Positions 1-16,633 of a DNA stretch of 16,633 nucleotides are shown here, piece after piece. The notes under the pieces are model-generated. The model searched no databases. It was given only the letters and a program-made list of their open reading frames with translations, and was not told where the DNA came from. Position numbers and translations under genes: made by a program. Numbering within the stretch: the stretch's first letter is position 1; each line of letters starts with the position of its first letter. Origin of the DNA: a virus (taxonomy: Duplodnaviria; Heunggongvirae; Uroviricota; Caudoviricetes); the IMG/VR virus record IMGVR_UViG_2740892219_000014; one strand, written 5' to 3'.

Positions 1-348
1 CTACTGCATACGGCGCTGTTGCTGCTTTTCTGTATGCACGCGTTTTACTATCTTATAAATCCATTGCAGCGTCAGATTATATTTCTTCGCTAATTCGGCG
101 TAGTTGCGCCCATCGCACTCGCTGTAGATTTGATAGTCCCGCTCCGAGGCTCGCCTGGCGATTCCTTTTGGAAAATAAATGCTTTGTCCGCCCCAGTTTC
201 GCATCATGCGATCGGCAATGGCATAGCCAACATTTTCCGCAGATGAGCTATCCAGATTGATGCTCTCAATCAGAACTTGCGAAGCATGAAACGCCAAATC
301 GTTAATGATCTCCGGTGTCCGGGTCATCTCTTTTGCTTTTTGTATCAT
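1..348 (-). CDS. Mor/C-family transcriptional activator (Mu middle/late operon regulator family)
   Basis: 115-aa ORF with stop at 1-3 and ATG at 346-348; GGAG RBS upstream on minus strand. C-terminal GGQSIYFPKG...DGRNYAELAKKYNLTLQWIYKIVKR matches the Mor/C pattern (GGQ-IY-P-G followed by a C-terminal HTH ending YKI/YKA-RR). Divergent from the lysis/tail operon. Confidence 0.8.
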   Translation of the reverse strand: MIQKAKEMTRTPEIINDLAFHASQVLIESINLDSSSAENVGYAIADRMMRNWGGQSIYFPKGIARRASERDYQIYSECDGRNYAELAKKYNLTLQWIYKIVKRVHTEKQQQRRMQ

Positions 349-4906: not shown

Positions 4907-5224
4907 ATGAAAGAGCATTATATCTTACAGTTTCCCTTTACGTCGGCAGCAGGAAATAATATCGACACGCTACAATTACGTCGCCTGAAAGTCAAAGATA
5001 TGCGTAATGCACGCCGGGTCAGCGAAAAGCCGGAAGAATGGGATGAACCGCTAATGGCAGCGATGACCGGGCTGGTACCAGAAGATTTAGCTGAAATGGA
5101 TTTGCTGGATTACCAGGCGTTGCAGAAACGATTTCAATCCATGCTTACCGTGGCTACAGAATCCCCCCTTGCTATGGCAGGCAATGGCGCTACTGGCGAG
5201 ATGGTTTCGCTTTCCACCCAGTGA
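4907..5224 (+). CDS. Tail assembly chaperone (P2 gpE / Mu gp41 position), short in-frame product
   Basis: 105 aa, acidic, with AAGGA RBS; located between the tube and tape-measure genes, as for tape-measure chaperones. Confidence 0.7.
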   Translation: MKEHYILQFPFTSAAGNNIDTLQLRRLKVKDMRNARRVSEKPEEWDEPLMAAMTGLVPEDLAEMDLLDYQALQKRFQSMLTVATESPLAMAGNGATGEMVSLSTQ

Positions 5225-5312
5225 GATTGACGCTCTAACGATAGATGACTTTAGTCACTGGCTGGATGAAGCCAGCGCTCAAATAAAAATCGAATATGAC
5301 TCGCAGACCTGA
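5163..5312 (+). other. Putative programmed frameshift site (C6 run) and +1-frame extension giving a longer chaperone isoform
   Basis: The +1 frame (equivalent to -2) is open from 5055 to a TGA at 5310-5312, overlapping the chaperone 3' end; UCC_CCC_CUU at 5162-5170 would let tRNA-Pro re-pair 2 nt back; the extension reads ...PPSEIDALTIDDFSHWLDEASAQIKIEYDSQT. The -1 frame closes almost immediately. Confidence 0.45.
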
Positions 5313-5412
5313 TGTCTGCGAGTTCTTCAAAGCCCGCCAGGTTTATTTCTTCCCAGCCCATTTTTCAGAAAACTAACCAGCGGGCCATCACCAATCTATA
5401 AGAGAAACAATT

Positions 5413-7788
5413 TTGGCCAACGATATTATTACCCAGCTTCAGGCGCGTAATGAGACGTTGACGCAGGCAATAGCCCGTTACGGCTCACTCAACGCCAGAA
5501 CATTGTTAGCACTCTCTTCTCAGCAAGCGACAGTAATCAAACTAACGCAGCAACTTGCCGATTCCGCTCTCCGCCTGGAGGAAAATAGCCGAAACCGCGC
5601 TGATCTGATGGAGAAAACCCAAACATTTGCTGGGCAATTTAGCAAAGTATTCAATGTTGAAGTCCCTGACTGGAAGTTGCCGTATGAGTTTCAGGACAAC
5701 ATGGTCAATTTGGCGACCAAAGGTGGGATGAATGATACAACCCGCGAGACACTCAGCCTTAATCTGCGCGACTGGAGCATGGATTTTAACCAGCAGCAGA
5801 CCACCTTACAGAACGCAGCCCAGGTGCTAATCGAAGGTAATTTGTCGTCGATGCAGGATCTCAACCGTTATATGCCGGAGCTCGCCAAAGCGGCCACCAC
5901 CACGCGCGAAAGTGCTGAAACATGGGCGAATGCCGCGCTCGCGACTCATGATCGACTGAATATTGCGCCAGAAAATTTCCACGCCGCGCAAAACATGATG
6001 TACGGCATTAGCAAAAACGGTGGGCCTACCGTTGCCGGGCAAACACAGTGGATAGACAAATTTGCAGTTAAAACTGGCGCACAGGGTTTAGAAGGTATGG
6101 CTGAACTGACCGCCACAATGCAGATCGCAATGAAAAATGGTGCCAGCGCCAGTGTGGCGGCGGAGAATTTCGACCACTTTCTGCAAACCATCTTTTCGAA
6201 AAAAACCGATAACTGGTTCGTCAGCCAGGGCGTCGATCTGCAAGGCTCTTTGCTTGAACATCAGCAAAACGGCATGGGTGTTAGCGAAGCCATGATTCAT
6301 ATCGTGCAAACGCAACTTGAGAAGATGAATCCGGCGATCCTCGACACCTTCAAACGCACCATGCAAATTGAAGATTTATCTGCTCGCAGCAACGCACTGC
6401 AATCGATGGTGACGCAATTTAATCTGGGCGAAATGTTCGGCGATGCGCAAACAGTGGAATTCCTGGCACCTGTGCTGGCGAATATGGAAGAGTATCGCCA
6501 GTTAAAAGCATCCGCCATGCAAGACAGCGGTAAGAATATGATTGACAACGATTTTTCTGTGCAGATGGCCTCGCCCATTGAACAAACTAAAACGTTACAA
6601 CTGGCGTTAAATGATTTATGGCTCAGCATTGGCTTGCAATTAATGCCGCTGATTGGCGAGTTGGCGCAAAGCCTTACTCCGGTGATTCGCCAGTTCAGCG
6701 CCTGGCTACGTGAACACCCGGCGCTGGTGCAAAACATTGCGAAAATCGTCGGAGCGATTTGGCTGTTTAACGGCGCACTGAATGTTTTAAAGCTGGGCGC
6801 GAACGTCATCGCCTCGCCGTTTATTCGTCTGGTCGATATCTTCCTGAAAGTCAGGGCAAGTCTGACGCTCACAGGCGCGGCAAGTAAGATGCTATCAGCG
6901 GTTAATTCATTATATAACGGCGCAAAATGGCTAACGCAACTGCTTGGCCGTGGCCTGATTGGCGCATTGAAACTGGCAGGTCAGACCGTCTTCTGGTTGG
7001 GTAGAGTTTTATTGATGAATCCTATTGGTCTGGTCATCACCGCGATTGCGGGCGCTGCTTATCTGATCTATCGCCACTGGGAACCTATCTCCAGATTCTT
7101 TTCCGCCATCTGGCAACGTATCACCACGGCCTTTGACGGCGGCATTGCAGGGATTTGCCGGTTAATTCTCGACTGGTCGCCGCTGGAGTTGTTCTACAAC
7201 GCCTTTTCCAGTGTGATGAATTGGTTTGGTGTCGAGATGCCTGCAAGTTTTAGCGAGTTCGGCAGCAATCTTCTGGGCAGTCTGGTTGACGGCATAATGA
7301 ATGCTTTCCCCGCTCTGAAAGGCATTATTGATCAGGTCAAAAACGCCTTACCGGACTGGCTAAAAACCACGATGGGTATTAGCACAGAAGGATCGGCTAC
7401 GGCTGTTACAAGCACGACGAATACCGCATCAATCTCCCCCACGACCGTTGTTCCAGGCGTTGCCGGAGCGATTTTAACGCCTCCTGTGGGCAAACAACTC
7501 GCGCCATCCAGTAAAACGACAACGTCGCCATCGACACCAGCGGAAAAAAATACAGCCGCCAAACCCGCATCGGCTTCTTTACCTGGTAAATCTGTAACCA
7601 AACCGGCGACGCTCCCCTCCCGTTCCTCTGGAAAAGTTCAGGTGAATTTTTCGCCACAAATTACCGTGCAGAGTAACGGACAAAACACCACTAAAGACAT
7701 TCAGAACGTGTTGACGATAAGTAAACGCGAACTGGAAAGAATGATTAACGACGTAATGGCGCAACAACAGCGCCGGGGGTATGCCTGA
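5413..7788 (+). CDS. Tail tape measure protein
   Basis: 791 aa; helical Q/A/L-rich N-terminal half, hydrophobic glycine-rich segments in the middle, and a Ser/Thr/Pro-rich low-complexity C-terminal region; sits after the chaperone gene. Apparent TTG start at 5413 (no in-frame ATG or GTG after the upstream stop at 5374-5376). Confidence 0.85.
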   Translation: MANDIITQLQARNETLTQAIARYGSLNARTLLALSSQQATVIKLTQQLADSALRLEENSRNRADLMEKTQTFAGQFSKVFNVEVPDWKLPYEFQDNMVNLATKGGMNDTTRETLSLNLRDWSMDFNQQQTTLQNAAQVLIEGNLSSMQDLNRYMPELAKAATTTRESAETWANAALATHDRLNIAPENFHAAQNMMYGISKNGGPTVAGQTQWIDKFAVKTGAQGLEGMAELTATMQIAMKNGASASVAAENFDHFLQTIFSKKTDNWFVSQGVDLQGSLLEHQQNGMGVSEAMIHIVQTQLEKMNPAILDTFKRTMQIEDLSARSNALQSMVTQFNLGEMFGDAQTVEFLAPVLANMEEYRQLKASAMQDSGKNMIDNDFSVQMASPIEQTKTLQLALNDLWLSIGLQLMPLIGELAQSLTPVIRQFSAWLREHPALVQNIAKIVGAIWLFNGALNVLKLGANVIASPFIRLVDIFLKVRASLTLTGAASKMLSAVNSLYNGAKWLTQLLGRGLIGALKLAGQTVFWLGRVLLMNPIGLVITAIAGAAYLIYRHWEPISRFFSAIWQRITTAFDGGIAGICRLILDWSPLELFYNAFSSVMNWFGVEMPASFSEFGSNLLGSLVDGIMNAFPALKGIIDQVKNALPDWLKTTMGISTEGSATAVTSTTNTASISPTTVVPGVAGAILTPPVGKQLAPSSKTTTSPSTPAEKNTAAKPASASLPGKSVTKPATLPSRSSGKVQVNFSPQITVQSNGQNTTKDIQNVLTISKRELERMINDVMAQQQRRGYA

Positions 7789-8741
7789 TGTATGCCGTTT
7801 TAGGAGAGATTGAATTTAAGGTTGTCACATTCTGGGACGGCTTTAAAAGCACAATGGGCGTGGACTACGCCACACATGCCCGTATAGAAGGCAAACCCGG
7901 CGTGCAGTTTATTGGCGATAAGCTGGATATGCTGGCACTGGAATTTTCCTTGCACAGCCAGTTTTGCCAACCCACAACAGAGCTGAATCGACTGCGTGAA
8001 GCCATGCTTGCCCACAAAGCGATGGCTCTGGTGTTTGGCAATGGCGATTATCGCGGCTGGTTTGTGATTACGGAGCTAACCGCCACCCACCAGCACACCG
8101 ATCCCTGGGGCAATGTGATTGCTCAAAGCGGAACAATGTCGCTCCAGGAGTACACCGGCGATCCTAAAAATCCACTCTTGCCCCCGGCAATTACTACCCA
8201 AGACCCGAATATTGACGAAAAGGCGAGCGATTTTCCAGACATGGTGGAGTCCTGGTTTGATCAGATATTGAACGCCATTGAAGAAGGTATGCGTAAGGCC
8301 AAAGAGATGCTCGATGAGCTGACTCAAGCCATTGAAGATATTAAAAAAACGGTGGCAAAAGTGAAAGCACTGGTTAAAGAGGCCAAAGCGTTAAAAGAAA
8401 AGTGTGAAAAGATAATTACGTCGTTGAAAAAGACTATCGACGCCATCGAAACCCTGTTTAAACAGCCCATGGATCTGCAAACGCTGGCAGGACTCCCAAA
8501 AGCGTTGTCGGCGCAGATTAACGCTTTACTGGGTAACATGCCAGGTATCCGGGACTGCGCCAAAGACGCCAGCACGCTGGTTGACCATGCTCAGGCGCTT
8601 TTCGACGACATTACCAACGACATCGCCGAAGCGACGTTCGATAAAGCCGCAACGTTGGTTGAGCAGGCACGAACAACGGTACAACAAACCACTCCCGCAG
8701 TGAGCCAGCTTGCTGCCGCGACCATTACGAGGAGCTGGTGA
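7788..8741 (+). CDS. Tail protein with gpU-like N-terminal domain (about 130 aa) fused to a long predicted coiled-coil C-terminal region
   Basis: 317 aa; start overlaps the tape-measure stop (TGATG). The N-terminal segment fits the slot and general pattern of P2 gpU / Mu gp43 N-domain; residues about 150-317 are K/E/A/L-rich heptad-like sequence (EEGMRKAKEMLDELTQAIEDIKKTVAKVKALVKEAKALKEK...). Confidence 0.5.
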   Translation: MYAVLGEIEFKVVTFWDGFKSTMGVDYATHARIEGKPGVQFIGDKLDMLALEFSLHSQFCQPTTELNRLREAMLAHKAMALVFGNGDYRGWFVITELTATHQHTDPWGNVIAQSGTMSLQEYTGDPKNPLLPPAITTQDPNIDEKASDFPDMVESWFDQILNAIEEGMRKAKEMLDELTQAIEDIKKTVAKVKALVKEAKALKEKCEKIITSLKKTIDAIETLFKQPMDLQTLAGLPKALSAQINALLGNMPGIRDCAKDASTLVDHAQALFDDITNDIAEATFDKAATLVEQARTTVQQTTPAVSQLAAATITRSW

Positions 8742-12922: not shown

Positions 12923-14671
12923 ATGGCAAGTGAATTTTTTACAATATTAACTGCTGCAGGCAAAACCCAAATTGCCTCAGCACTGGCGGAGCAAAAACAG
13001 ATCCGTCTGCAAACTATGGTAGTTGGCGATGGCAACGGTAAATATATCGAACCGACAGAAATCCAGACCAAAGTAGTCCATGAGGTCTGGCGTGGTCAGC
13101 TCAATACATTAAAAATTGCGCCAGATAATCCGGCCTGGGTTATCGCAGAAGCGATTATTCCCGAAGAGGTTGGAGGCTGGTATGTTCGCGAAGTTGGGTT
13201 GCTGGATACCGACGGCACGCTGGTCGCTATTGGTAAATTCCCTGAAACCTATAAACCACAATTACCTGCAGGTGCCAGTAAGCAAATTGTTATACGCGCA
13301 GTGATGGAAGTGACAAATGCGGATGTGGTGACGCTGTTGATAGATCCTTCAGTTGTTATGGCAACCAGGGAATATGTCGATGACACGCTGAAAGCACATC
13401 AGCAATCACGAAATCATCCTGATGCAACACTGACGCAGAAAGGTTTCACGCAACTGAGTAATGCAACTAATAGCGATGATGAAACCAAAGCGGCCACACC
13501 AAAAGCAGTAAAAACCGCATATGACCTGGCAAATAGCAAAGCCGCCACCAGCCATACTCATGGCTGGAATCAGATAACCAGTATCCCTGACGGTACGCTG
13601 GCGCAGAAAGGGATTGTGAAGCTTAACAGTACCACAAACAGCACCAGCACAACGGAAGCTGCAACACCGAGCGCGGTGAAGGCGGCAATGGATAAGGCTA
13701 CTGCGGCTGCACCAGCAAGCCATACCCACACCTGGGGACAAATCACTGGTATCCCCGACGCCACGCTGACGCAAAAAGGAATTGTGAAGCTTAACAGTAC
13801 CACAAACAGCACCAGCACGACGGAAGCTGCAACACCGAGCGCGGTGAAGGCGGCAATGGATAAGGCTATTGCGGCAGCACCAGCAAGTCATACCCACGCC
13901 TGGGGACAAATCACTGGTATCCCCGACGCCACGCTGACGCAAAAAGGAATTGTGAAACTTAACAGTACCACAAACAGCACCAGCACGACGGAAGCTGCAA
14001 CACCGAACGCGGTGAAGGCAGCAATGGATAAGGCTATTGCGGCGGAAAACTGTCCCGTAGGTATGCCTATTCCCTGGCCGTCTGATTCTGTACCTTCAGG
14101 CTATGCGCTGATGACAGGACAAACATTCAATAAAACCTCCTATCCCAAACTGGCGATTGCATATCCATCTGGTGTCATTCCTGATATGCGTGGATGGATA
14201 ATTAAAGGGAAACCGGCCAGTGGGCGCACAGTATTATCAACTGAACTGGATGGAGTTAAATCACATAACCATACGGGCAGTATTTCTAGTACGGATTTAG
14301 GGACAAAAACCACAGCCCTCACAGACTTGGGGACTAAAACTACATCAGCATTTAACCATGGTAATAAAACAACAAGTTCATCTGGCACAGTCTCGGCAAC
14401 TGCAACTGTAAGAACAGGGACATCTTCGCCAGAGGGCCAAGCCGACTGGACATCATATGGCCCTGGAACCGGATCATCTTTGACTATTAATGTTCCATCA
14501 CACGCCCATAGTATTACAATTGGTTCCCATTCCCACACTGTTGCACTCGGCACCCATTCGCATTCAATTGCCCTTGGTTCCCATAACCACTCCCTAACCA
14601 TTAATAATACAGGCCCCCCCGAAAACACCGTTAAAAATATCGCATTCAACTATATTGTGAGGCTAGCATGA
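12923..14671 (+). CDS. Tail fiber protein (P2 gpH / Mu S type) with collagen-like repeats and a His-x-His tip
   Basis: 582 aa. Conserved N-terminal baseplate-attachment region (HEVWRGQLN...[38 protein letters not shown]...[48 protein letters not shown]); three 56-aa tandem repeats ([36 protein letters not shown]...); a C-terminal array of H-x-H motifs; and a terminal ...[15 protein letters not shown]. Confidence 0.9.
13553..14045 (+). repeat. In-frame 168-nt tandem repeat, about 2.9 copies, inside the tail fiber gene
   Basis: Copies begin at 13553, 13721 and 13889 (period exactly 168 nt); copies 2 and 3 are nearly identical at the nucleotide level and copy 1 is more diverged; a degenerate partial copy lies upstream at about 13425-13552. 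Confidence 0.85.
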
Positions 14672-15832: not shown

Positions 15833-15853
15833 CGCCGGGCATCACGCCCGGCG
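15833..15853. terminator. Hairpin shared by the convergent gene ends; likely terminator for the minus-strand gene
   Basis: CGCCGGGC-ATCAC-GCCCGGCG stem-loop between the plus-strand stop (15825-15827) and the minus-strand stop (15842-15844, inside the loop); on the minus strand it is followed by TTATTTTAC, whereas on the plus strand no T-run follows. Confidence 0.55.
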
Positions 15854-16633
15854 CATTACCGTCTGGTACAGTAAACTATCCAGTTCCTTAACGTCCCCTT
15901 CCCTGCTGTCCGGTAACACTGGTGGAATTTTCCCGTGCACCAGTTCCGTACTAATAAACACATGCAACAAAGGACGACGCGGACCATATTCCACTTCACC
16001 CGCACGCTGTTTACATTCCAGCAACTCGTCTATTTCTGCGCGTAACGGCGCATCAAGTTCGCTTCCCGCCAGTAATTCGGCAAACCGCATTGGCAGTACA
16101 CCTTTACCCGCTTCAACCCAACGCACAGCCAGCAGTGGCCGCAGCACGTAAAAGTATTTTTTCAGCCAAACTACGTTGCCCTGCAAATAACCGCGAAAAT
16201 TTTTCCGCGCCATCGGATAATAATGCCAACGCGCGCGCAGCGGAGAAAACCACTTCGGCACCATTGCCTTAAGCGCCGTTATCGTTTCTTCATCTTGTTG
16301 ATAGACCACCGGAGAATCCAGCCATTCAATCAGCGTCGGATTCGCGCCTTTCAGTAATCCCAGCGCCTTGCGCCACTCCCAGCCTGAAACATCTAACTCG
16401 TCGTCAATAGGCAACTCAATAACATCGCGCGGCGCCTCCACCCGCAGATACCATTCCGGCGGATGAACATACAAGAACCGCACATCGTAGTCGCTGTCGG
16501 GTGAGGCAAATCCCCAACCGCGACTCCCCGATTCACTCGCATACAACACTTTCACATCATACCGCCGTTCAATTTCTTTTAACTGCTGCGATACCCGTTC
16601 GTGCATCGCAACACTGACTCCATTTAATGGCAT
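15842..16633 (-). CDS. Nucleotidyltransferase-fold protein (Pol beta superfamily)
   Basis: 263-aa ORF whose ATG is the last codon of the window (16631-16633), so the true N-terminus could lie beyond the edge. The motif LYASESGSRGWGFASPDSDYDVRFLY matches the minimal nucleotidyltransferase signature hG[GS]-x(9-13)-DhD; it is convergent with the tail operon. Confidence 0.6.
   Translation of the reverse strand: MPLNGVSVAMHERVSQQLKEIERRYDVKVLYASESGSRGWGFASPDSDYDVRFLYVHPPEWYLRVEAPRDVIELPIDDELDVSGWEWRKALGLLKGANPTLIEWLDSPVVYQQDEETITALKAMVPKWFSPLRARWHYYPMARKNFRGYLQGNVVWLKKYFYVLRPLLAVRWVEAGKGVLPMRFAELLAGSELDAPLRAEIDELLECKQRAGEVEYGPRRPLLHVFISTELVHGKIPPVLPDSREGDVKELDSLLYQTVMRRA

Follow-up and report, generated by a model that had tools for sequence, protein, structure and literature searches.

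Tail assembly chaperones made in two isoforms by ribosomal frameshifting are a textbook case of recoding, and nearly all the documented examples are -1 shifts, with the -2 shift of phage Mu standing as the exception. Here we describe a chaperone locus in a tail gene cluster of the Caudoviricetes (IMG/VR record IMGVR_UViG_2740892219_000014; the whole stretch of 16,633 nucleotides is henceforth called the window), in which a gene of the phage P2 gpE type is overlapped by an extension that is open in the +1 frame. The analysis draws on about 200 related loci.

Known frameshift systems of tail assembly chaperones

Most of the frameshifts reported for tail chaperones are of the -1 type, with Mu using -2, and +1 has been proposed for a few others (PMC5009743). 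In phage P2, gpE and gpE+E' are produced by a programmed -1 shift at T_TTT_TTG (Christie et al. 2002 as summarised in PMC3931495), whereas Mu gp41 uses a -2 shift at GG_GGG_CGA (Xu, Hendrix, Duda 2004 as cited in PMC3458567 and PMC3498833). In lambda, the gpG/gpGT pair depends on a -1 shift at G_GGA_AAG, with the ratio of the isoforms being set by recoding (PMC5009743). A +1 shift is proven for influenza A PA-X, where tRNA-Phe moves from UUU to UUC on UCC_UUU_CGU, and a class of UUU_C sites with restricted flanks has been predicted (PMC3498833).

The window shares with P2 the same two modules, namely a PF10109 chaperone and an E'-type extension, the position of the locus between the tube and tape measure genes, and a short form and a predicted long form with a common N-terminus. 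It differs in that the extension is in the +1 frame rather than in the -1 frame; there is no T6G heptamer, nor any T-run in 5091-5224; within the domain, the proposed shift site comes 3-4 codons earlier; the zero frame continues for 29 more codons as against 6 in P2; and P2 E' overlaps gene T at its start, whereas the window has a structured spacer of 100 nucleotides. The lambda pair is a functional analogue, in that a chaperone with a frameshift extension is encoded just upstream of the tape measure gene, but it shows no sequence similarity, comes from a siphovirus and uses a -1 shift.

The parallel to the -2 shift of Mu drawn by the first-pass annotation proved to be a loose one. As in Mu, the long form of a tail chaperone would be reached in the +1 frame, a CGA codon is found at the proposed site, and a myovirus tail module occurs together with Mu-type accessory genes (Mor, Gp37). 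However, gp41 of Mu belongs to PF23746 (119.5 bits, its PF10109 match being sub-threshold), its extension has no PF06528 match, and its slippery run is a G5 with tandem -2 re-pairing (motif read at L004 2958-2966). The window combines a P2 E-type PF10109 chaperone with an E'-type extension, and a search of it for GG_GGG_CGA returned nothing.

A P2 gpE-type chaperone with an E'-like extension in the +1 frame

The features of the locus that bear on the frameshift are the following:

4907-5224, plus strand: short form of the tail assembly chaperone, P2 gpE type, 105 residues, with its TGA at 5222-5224 (read and translated)
5129-5135, plus strand: proposed +1 shift site CGA_UUU_C, covering Arg75, Phe76 and the first base of codon 77, put forward from codon conservation
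5136-5312, plus strand: +1-frame part of the predicted 134-residue long form, 58 codons and the TGA at 5310-5312, NPCLPWLQNPPLLWQAMALLARWFRFPPSEIDALTIDDFSHWLDEASAQIKIEYDSQT
5153-5221, plus strand: residues 83-105, the short form's C-terminal end in the zero frame, a by-product of the overlap
5163-5168, plus strand: C6 run inside GAA_UCC_CCC_CUU, Pro-Pro in the +1 frame
5184-5285, plus strand: E'-like core of the extension, from PF06528 and BLASTP against P2 E', MALLARWFRFPPSEIDALTIDDFSHWLDEASAQI

The end of the chaperone reading frame at 5222-5224, as first annotated, is borne out by translation. The +1 frame (codon starts at 0 mod 3) had been given as open from 5055; in fact it has stops at 5064-5066 and 5088-5090, opens at 5091 and closes at the TGA at 5310-5312, with the C-terminus ...IDDFSHWLDEASAQIKIEYDSQT. 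The -1 frame closes at 5238 on translation. The chaperone gene is flanked by the tube gene (PF04985, 4332-4856) and the tape measure gene (PF10145, 5413-7788).

Profile searches assigned the chaperone to PF10109 (Phage_TAC_7, 'E, or 41 or 14') with 69.7 bits over residues 6-80, against a cut-off of 25 bits and a score of 47.8 bits for P2 E itself; this is its sole profile match, with PF23746 (Gp41_Mu) not being assigned to it. The +1-frame peptide scored 18.1 bits (E = 0.0019) from Met 5184 against PF06528 (Phage_P2_GpE), which is under that family's cut-off of 23 bits. BLASTP of the extension against P2 E' gave 33% identity over 30 residues (E = 1e-4), pairing MALLARWFRFPPSEIDALTIDDFSHWLDEA with MADVAVIFHWPPSELYPMSLTELITWREKA, and the two have in common the motif FxxPPSE(I/L)...W. 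As P2 E' scores 78.7 bits on PF06528, this profile does represent the E' part of P2. Hence, the extension is likely to be homologous to P2 E', although its profile score is formally below threshold, and the coupling of a PF10109 chaperone with a P2 E'-like extension suggests that the pair is homologous to P2 E/E+E'. A search for relatives of the predicted long form in the PDB found none. In E. coli genomes, the Prokaryotic Genome Annotation Pipeline (PGAP) labels the equivalent of 4907-5224 a 'phage tail assembly protein', and the +1 reading frame is called as a separate 'GpE family phage tail protein' of 42 residues in some of them and left unannotated in others.

The two-frame layout is widespread. 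Of the 5,426 complete E. coli genomes searched, 195 carry the segment, and all three of those that were read have an identical layout; it is also kept in 33 intact loci out of 35 from other genera and in 80 IMG/VR loci. The extension is in the +1 frame in 38 anchored loci (the window, E. coli and genome contigs), and the same relation is seen in BcepMu and in Ralstonia, Pseudomonas and Burkholderia phages, and thus in every intact relative of the subfamily that was read. The recurrence of the layout in E. coli genomes and intact relatives excludes a homopolymer sequencing error, a possibility raised at first pass, as its origin. The extension is also genuine coding sequence, as had been proposed, and goes far past what chance would give, with a conserved domain and purifying selection in the +1 frame in every relative examined. 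Taken together, the conserved frame and the selection support the earlier proposal that a programmed shift into the +1 frame is required for the chaperone's longer isoform, and this comparative evidence makes it very probable that the shift is indeed programmed.

In-frame chaperone-E' versions of 134 residues do exist in the public protein database (P0008, P0010; contigs L043-L047). They arise by a 1-nucleotide deletion at or near the C run (window equivalent 5163-5169), and their contigs have further 1-nucleotide indels, several of them in homopolymers, that disrupt the sheath, tube or tape-measure genes. Because of these additional gene-breaking indels, we treated the in-frame proteins as assembly errors and rejected them as proof of a junction at the C run. 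One deletion, TCCTCCC-TG, is common to four independent records, and could be either a systematic error or a real allele. Separately, in Erwinia tracheiphila (L039, ~1800-1890) a 1-nucleotide deletion in CCGGGGGAG joins the zero-frame tail to the distal part of E', yielding an open reading frame of 130 residues in what is probably a decaying copy.

Frame-specific selection brackets the shift

We compared the locus codon by codon in each frame across 36 gap-free relatives, setting synonymous against nonsynonymous pairs. Up to about 5152, the zero frame has the synonymous-only variation typical of a translated gene: for instance, the synonymous/nonsynonymous pairs are 308/0 at D5108, 413/0 at L5120 and 323/0 at Q5123. 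From 5153 to the stop, most zero-frame codons have 0-41 synonymous versus 180-529 nonsynonymous pairs, the exceptions being codons 5186, 5195 and 5204, which are invariant or still change synonymously. The +1 frame varies freely and frequently has stops before 5127, contains an invariant Trp at 5151-5153, from which point its codons are either invariant or change only synonymously, and is strongly restricted to synonymous change from 5172-5181 onwards (365/0 at A5181, 416/0 at R5199 and 243/0 at F5205), with AGA, AGG, CGA and CGG all in use for R5199 and both TTT and TTC at 5205.

The zero-frame stop shifts among the relatives, being found at the equivalents of 5159, 5178, 5207, 5222 and 5228. 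In two of them (L075/L076, at 1450-1455) a TAA closes the zero frame at the equivalent of 5159-5161, another (L082) has the short-form TAA at about the equivalent of 5178, and in five more (L036, L078, L080, L081, L116) the short form ends in a TAG at 5207 that is made by the AGG/AGA Arg codons of the +1 frame. This wandering stop suggests that the short form can do without its last 20-odd residues. The tail after residue 83 is unselected and probably disordered, as indicated by the codon comparison and by an AlphaFold model in which the helix 66-83 is confident and residues 85-102 have a pLDDT below 50. In some relatives the +1 frame is interrupted by a stop at the equivalent of 5103-5105; together with the zero-frame TAA at 5159-5161, this confines the shift to 5106-5158, provided that its position is conserved.

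A conserved UUU_C as the candidate shift site

Within this interval, CGA_TTT_C is the sole conservation at the nucleotide level that goes beyond the requirements of the protein, and its UUU_C (5132-5135) is about 30 bases upstream of the C run. Among the distinct enteric sequences, Phe76 is TTT in 104 of 104 and Arg75 is CGA in 103 of 104. Other Phe codons are mixed, with residue 9 being TTC in 53 and TTT in 26 sequences and the Phe codons of the +1 frame showing TTC/TTT counts of 88/15, 88/14 and 86/13; other Arg positions use two to five codons.

We also retrieved loci independently by means of a DNA pattern for the E' motif WFRFQPSE, leaving the chaperone unused, which yielded 94 distinct loci with 22 flanking-codon contexts and a locus GC content of 45-70%. 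In all 94, a zero-frame TTT followed by C is found 61-70 nucleotides upstream of the WFRF motif, while the other Phe codons nearby are 25 TTC versus 7 TTT. The codon after the TTT begins with C in every case, with the encoded amino acid varying between Gln, His, Arg and Leu. In 15 of these loci the +1 frame opens just three codons before the TTC, and in 33 there is a zero-frame stop five to eight codons after the TTT. Distant relatives were sought by single-protein scans and the E' motif DNA pattern. Those from GC-rich hosts retain TTT_C at the same Phe, with TTC being the usual Phe codon in their loci and their chaperones being 24-45% identical to each other and to that of the window. Their sites include:

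BcepMu: TCC_TTT_CGC
Ralstonia YO107_2: CGA_TTT_CTG
Pseudomonas Komp_PAO1_1: GTG_TTT_CGG
Pseudomonas Bise: GCA_TTT_CAA
Burkholderia vB_HM795: TCC_TTT_CGA

In the BcepMu clade, selection in the +1 frame begins at the codon directly after UUC, a GCN Ala codon for which all four synonyms are used (50 synonymous/12 nonsynonymous pairs), where the overlapping zero-frame residue is S, L, R, D or G; upstream of this the +1 frame is unselected. In the record of BcepMu (L006, 2510-3271), the role of a G/GT-like frameshift pair is given to gp42/gp43; homology identifies gp42 (2766-2969) as the E' module, which is read in the +1 frame relative to gp41, and gp41 is the PF10109 chaperone, with its TCC_TTT_CGC at 2726-2734. 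The codon that follows UUU is CAA in the window and CAG, CAT, CTN, CGC, CGG, CGT or CGA in the relatives, with no single rare codon being shared; the enteric and Ralstonia groups have the conserved rare codon CGA, located 5' of UUU.

These patterns point to a +1 shift at UUU_C as the probable route to the long form at this locus. Most ribosomes would read 4907-5224 and make the 105-residue chaperone of 11.8 kDa with its folded domain (1-83) and tail, and a minority would shift +1 at CGA_UUU_C. There, the P-site tRNA-Phe (anticodon GAA) would move from UUU at 5132-5134 to UUC at 5133-5135, exchanging a G-U wobble for a G-C pair, after which reading would resume at AAU 5136 and end at the TGA at 5310-5312. 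A -2 re-pairing at UUU_C is impossible, as GAU or CCU precedes UUU. The predicted product of 134 residues (15.7 kDa) would consist of chaperone residues 1-76, a linker and the P2 E'-like domain, with FNPCLPWLQNPPLLWQAMALLAR as its junction peptide; the alternative junction peptide FQSMLTVATESP(P)LLWQAMALLAR is not expected from a shift at UUU_C. If lambda G/GT and P2 E/E+E' are taken as models, the N-terminal portion common to both forms would bind the tape measure protein, with the recruitment of tube or sheath subunits falling to the E' portion and a fixed ratio of short to long form being required for tail assembly. CGA is a poorly decoded I:A codon. That it hardly varies 5' of UUU among the enteric and Ralstonia sequences hints at a context effect: it may stimulate the slip while in the E site, or while in the P site prior to translocation. 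We infer the slip itself, its efficiency and the role of the CGA context from the sequences.

The proposed slip shares with PA-X the UUU_C tetranucleotide and the re-pairing of tRNA-Phe from UUU to UUC, and the BcepMu-type relatives share with it the entire UCC_UUU_CGN motif. The differences are that a bacterial translation system and an unrelated gene family are involved here, that the flanking codons in the window are CGA and CAA, such that the slow codon, if relevant, would be 5' of UUU and not in the A site, and that the mechanism was demonstrated in PA-X and is deduced here. Our coverage of the literature, which was incomplete, found no description of a +1 shift at UUU_C in phage tail chaperones, tailocins or BcepMu, and this is weak evidence for novelty.

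Several observations weigh against this assignment. In P2 (T_TTT_TTG) and Pasteurella phage AFS-2018a (A_AAG_GGA), the -1 site falls 3-5 codons further 3', where the PF10109 profile ends, and a shift at Phe76 would, going by the structural model, drop the last two turns of the helix 66-83 from the long form. In the enteric sequences the five +1 codons after UUC (5136-5150) lack protein-level conservation, while the zero frame is conserved there, a pattern that, taken alone, would allow the switch to be anywhere in 5132-5150. In vB_HM795, the residue aligned with Phe76 is three codons 5' of UUU_C. No evident stimulator is found in the window, and its A-site codon CAA is not rare. By eye, with no scan made, no Shine-Dalgarno-like element was seen immediately upstream of the site. 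When 38 non-redundant sequences were folded with RNAalifold, 5100-5229 yielded no conserved RNA structure (-2.7 kcal/mol, no covarying pair), on which result we rejected RNA structure near the site as a stimulator; Rfam had nothing in the whole window at the gathering score, nor in 5000-5450 at E <= 1. The invariance of TTT and CGA could in principle come from dual coding of the +1-frame Asn-Asp-Phe, with the shift occurring just upstream. For this family, the case for UUU_C is a comparative one.

The Pasteurella phage AFS-2018a locus (L131, ~810-835) belongs to the same E/E' family and has its extension in the -1 frame, with A_AAG_GGA, a canonical heptamer, just before the stop. This suggests that the E/E' family has switched between -1 and +1 recoding during its evolution.

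Other explanations for the longer isoform

The alternative that survives best places the +1 shift at lineage-specific sites just before the conserved Trp (5136-5150), for which the window offers CUU_A at 5144-5147 and the Pectobacterium, Brenneria and Xenorhabdus clades offer GGG_N, with UUU_C being conserved for another reason. The enteric frame switch at the protein level does map to 5147-5153, this position agrees with the -1 sites of P2 and the Pasteurella phage at the end of the PF10109 domain, and many clades have GGG and then NUG_G there. However, these sites share no motif across clades: codon 5147 is ACC, AGC, AAC, GGC, GGT, GGG or GGA, changing freely between synonyms, and Photorhabdus has no re-pairing site in this stretch. 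Such a shift would also leave unexplained both the TTT_C in 94 of 94 loci and the selection right after UUC in the BcepMu clade. We consider it unlikely.

The C6 run, at which the first-pass annotation placed the shift, is real: direct reading confirmed it at 5163-5168 within UCC_CCC_CUU. A tRNA-Pro slipping by -2 (or +1) on UCC_CCC_CUU at 5162-5170 would give a long form of 135 (or 134) residues, with the computed junction peptides FQSMLTVATESPPLLWQAMALLAR for the -2 and FQSMLTVATESPLLWQAMALLAR for the +1 shift. Perfect re-pairing is possible there, the run sits within the overlap of the two open frames, and the product would differ from that of UUU_C by only about 10 residues. Yet, among 123 anchored relatives, C6 is restricted to the window and L048; L049 has a C7, which is due to a T-to-C substitution that leaves the frames unchanged, and the remainder have C1-C5. 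The bases of the run behave as Pro-Pro codons of the +1 frame that drift synonymously, with variants such as CCT CCC, CCG CCA and CCG CAG. For example, CCC CCC TTG CTA of the window corresponds to CCG CCA CTG TTA in E. coli Z226-1 (L003), both of which encode PPLL in the +1 frame, as against SPLA in the window and SATV in E. coli Z226-1 in the zero frame; as PPLL is kept only in the +1 frame, the run lies 3' of the frame switch. Selection on the +1 frame, moreover, is already present upstream of the run, at the Trp of 5151-5153, and the zero frame of L075/L076 terminates before reaching it. Runs of CCCCCC are no commoner in the window than expected by chance (two places, with three overlapping matches, versus 5.4 expected). 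Hence, the slip on C6 as the general route is left unsupported and appears very improbable, though a minor lineage-specific contribution by the run in this element is conceivable. The only other C run of at least six in the window is a C7 at 14614-14620 (...GGC CCC CCC GAA...), 50 nucleotides before the end of the tail fibre gene.

A Mu-like variant would have tRNA-Lys slip by +1 or -2 on AAA at 5126-5128 while the slow CGA waits in the A site. That CGA is nearly invariant and that the Mu site also ends in CGA (PMC3458567) would fit this, as would the CAA_AAA_CGA of many relatives, which permits perfect -2 re-pairing. The window itself reads CAG_AAA, however, and several lineages have CAA, GAG, ACA or AAG as codon 74, none of which allows re-pairing; the GC-rich relatives have neither AAA nor CGA at these positions, and the AAA of codon 74 is no better conserved than that of Lys30. 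The chances of this slip appear slim.

Finally, the absence of any frameshift, with the E'-like frame being a separate small gene from ATG 5184 (as in the PGAP call of the 42-residue 'GpE family phage tail protein') or the product of a sequencing error or pseudogene (as the in-frame 134-residue versions in public assemblies might suggest), is scarcely credible, given that ATG 5184 is not conserved (Gln, Ser or Ala in other clades), that +1-frame selection reaches at least 11 codons upstream of it, that the homologous P2 E' is annotated as an E+E' fusion (PMC3931495), that the in-frame versions come from contigs with other gene-breaking 1-nucleotide indels, and that every intact relative read has the same two-frame layout.

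The hairpin at the long-form stop

5298-5324, plus strand: hairpin of 11 pairs (5298-5308/5314-5324) with the loop CUGAU, which contains the long-form stop, and no U tract
5313-5412, plus strand: untranslated spacer of 100 nucleotides between the long-form stop and the TTG start of the tape measure gene at 5413

The hairpin had been described as an 8-bp stem with the stop of the extension in its loop; the stop is in the loop, and folding extends the stem to 11 pairs. The segment 5285-5420 folds better than 200 of 200 shuffled versions (z = -4.7). Across the 19 distinct sequences of the enteric clade, the stem positions pair in 97% of the cells, versus 29-44% in slid controls; one A-U/G-C exchange is compensatory, and on one side several changes are G-U-compatible. 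The 5' arm codes for DSQ(T/A). The hairpin is absent from the Pectobacterium, Photorhabdus and Brenneria clades. A terminator scan reported nothing at the hairpin, and we rejected an intrinsic terminator for want of a U tract. A role as frameshift stimulator was likewise rejected, since the hairpin is 165 nucleotides 3' of UUU_C and 130 nucleotides 3' of the C run, too distant from both candidate sites, and is missing in several clades. That it acts as a barrier stabilising the upstream mRNA, or separating translation from that of the tape measure gene, is only a guess. A second stem is predicted in the spacer at 5332-5385.

The element and its gene neighborhood

The locus is part of a headless cluster that begins with a Mor-family activator (1-348, minus strand), a holin (904-1191), an SLT transglycosylase (1095-1799) and Gp37 (2272-2727), and continues with a complete contractile tail module of the P2 type, comprising sheath, tube, E, T, U, X, D, V, W, J and I, and with genes for the fibre and its assembly. 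In E. coli ws5-3 (L151, 9173-25659) it is located between lysC and yjbD/rluF, and no head, integrase or replication genes are found in the E. coli cluster. The element resembles an R-type tailocin or the remnant of a prophage reduced to its tail. Its Pectobacterium relatives are on IMG/VR contigs of 14-18 kb, and those from Photorhabdus and Xenorhabdus on contigs of 22-47 kb.

Two further features of the cluster were observed. The gpU-like protein (7788-8741, 317 residues) is covered by PF06995 over residues 6-123 only, and the remainder, with weak coiled-coil-type matches, looks like an unusual C-terminal extension. After the tail cluster, 15842-16633 (minus strand) encodes an RlaP-type nucleotidyltransferase (PF10127, 309 bits); in the E. 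coli locus (L151, 24868-26792) it is followed by a slipin-family gene. Both genes may have been attached to the element as cargo or for defence.

Implications for the family

A methodological point is that shift sites cannot be reliably located from homopolymer runs, with the comparison of frame-specific selection pointing elsewhere in this case. We lean towards the view that a large family of P2 E/E'-type chaperones may make its long form by a +1 slip on UUU_C, as a bacterial counterpart of PA-X; this family would encompass the BcepMu-like phages and the headless tailocin-like clusters of Enterobacterales, Burkholderia, Ralstonia and Pseudomonas. In current annotations the long form is split or missing, as with the PGAP 'GpE family' frame, or another pair is assigned, as with gp42/gp43 of BcepMu, and the proposed shift, if true, would correct the annotation of many genomes. 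A conserved site of this kind, free of RNA structure and in use in numerous proteobacterial phages and tailocin-like clusters, would also be a natural model, in bacteria, of how tRNA-Phe slips +1 in the P site and of the effects of neighboring codons such as CGA. For the engineering of tailocins, it would mean that recoding or codon optimisation would silently abolish the long form of the chaperone.

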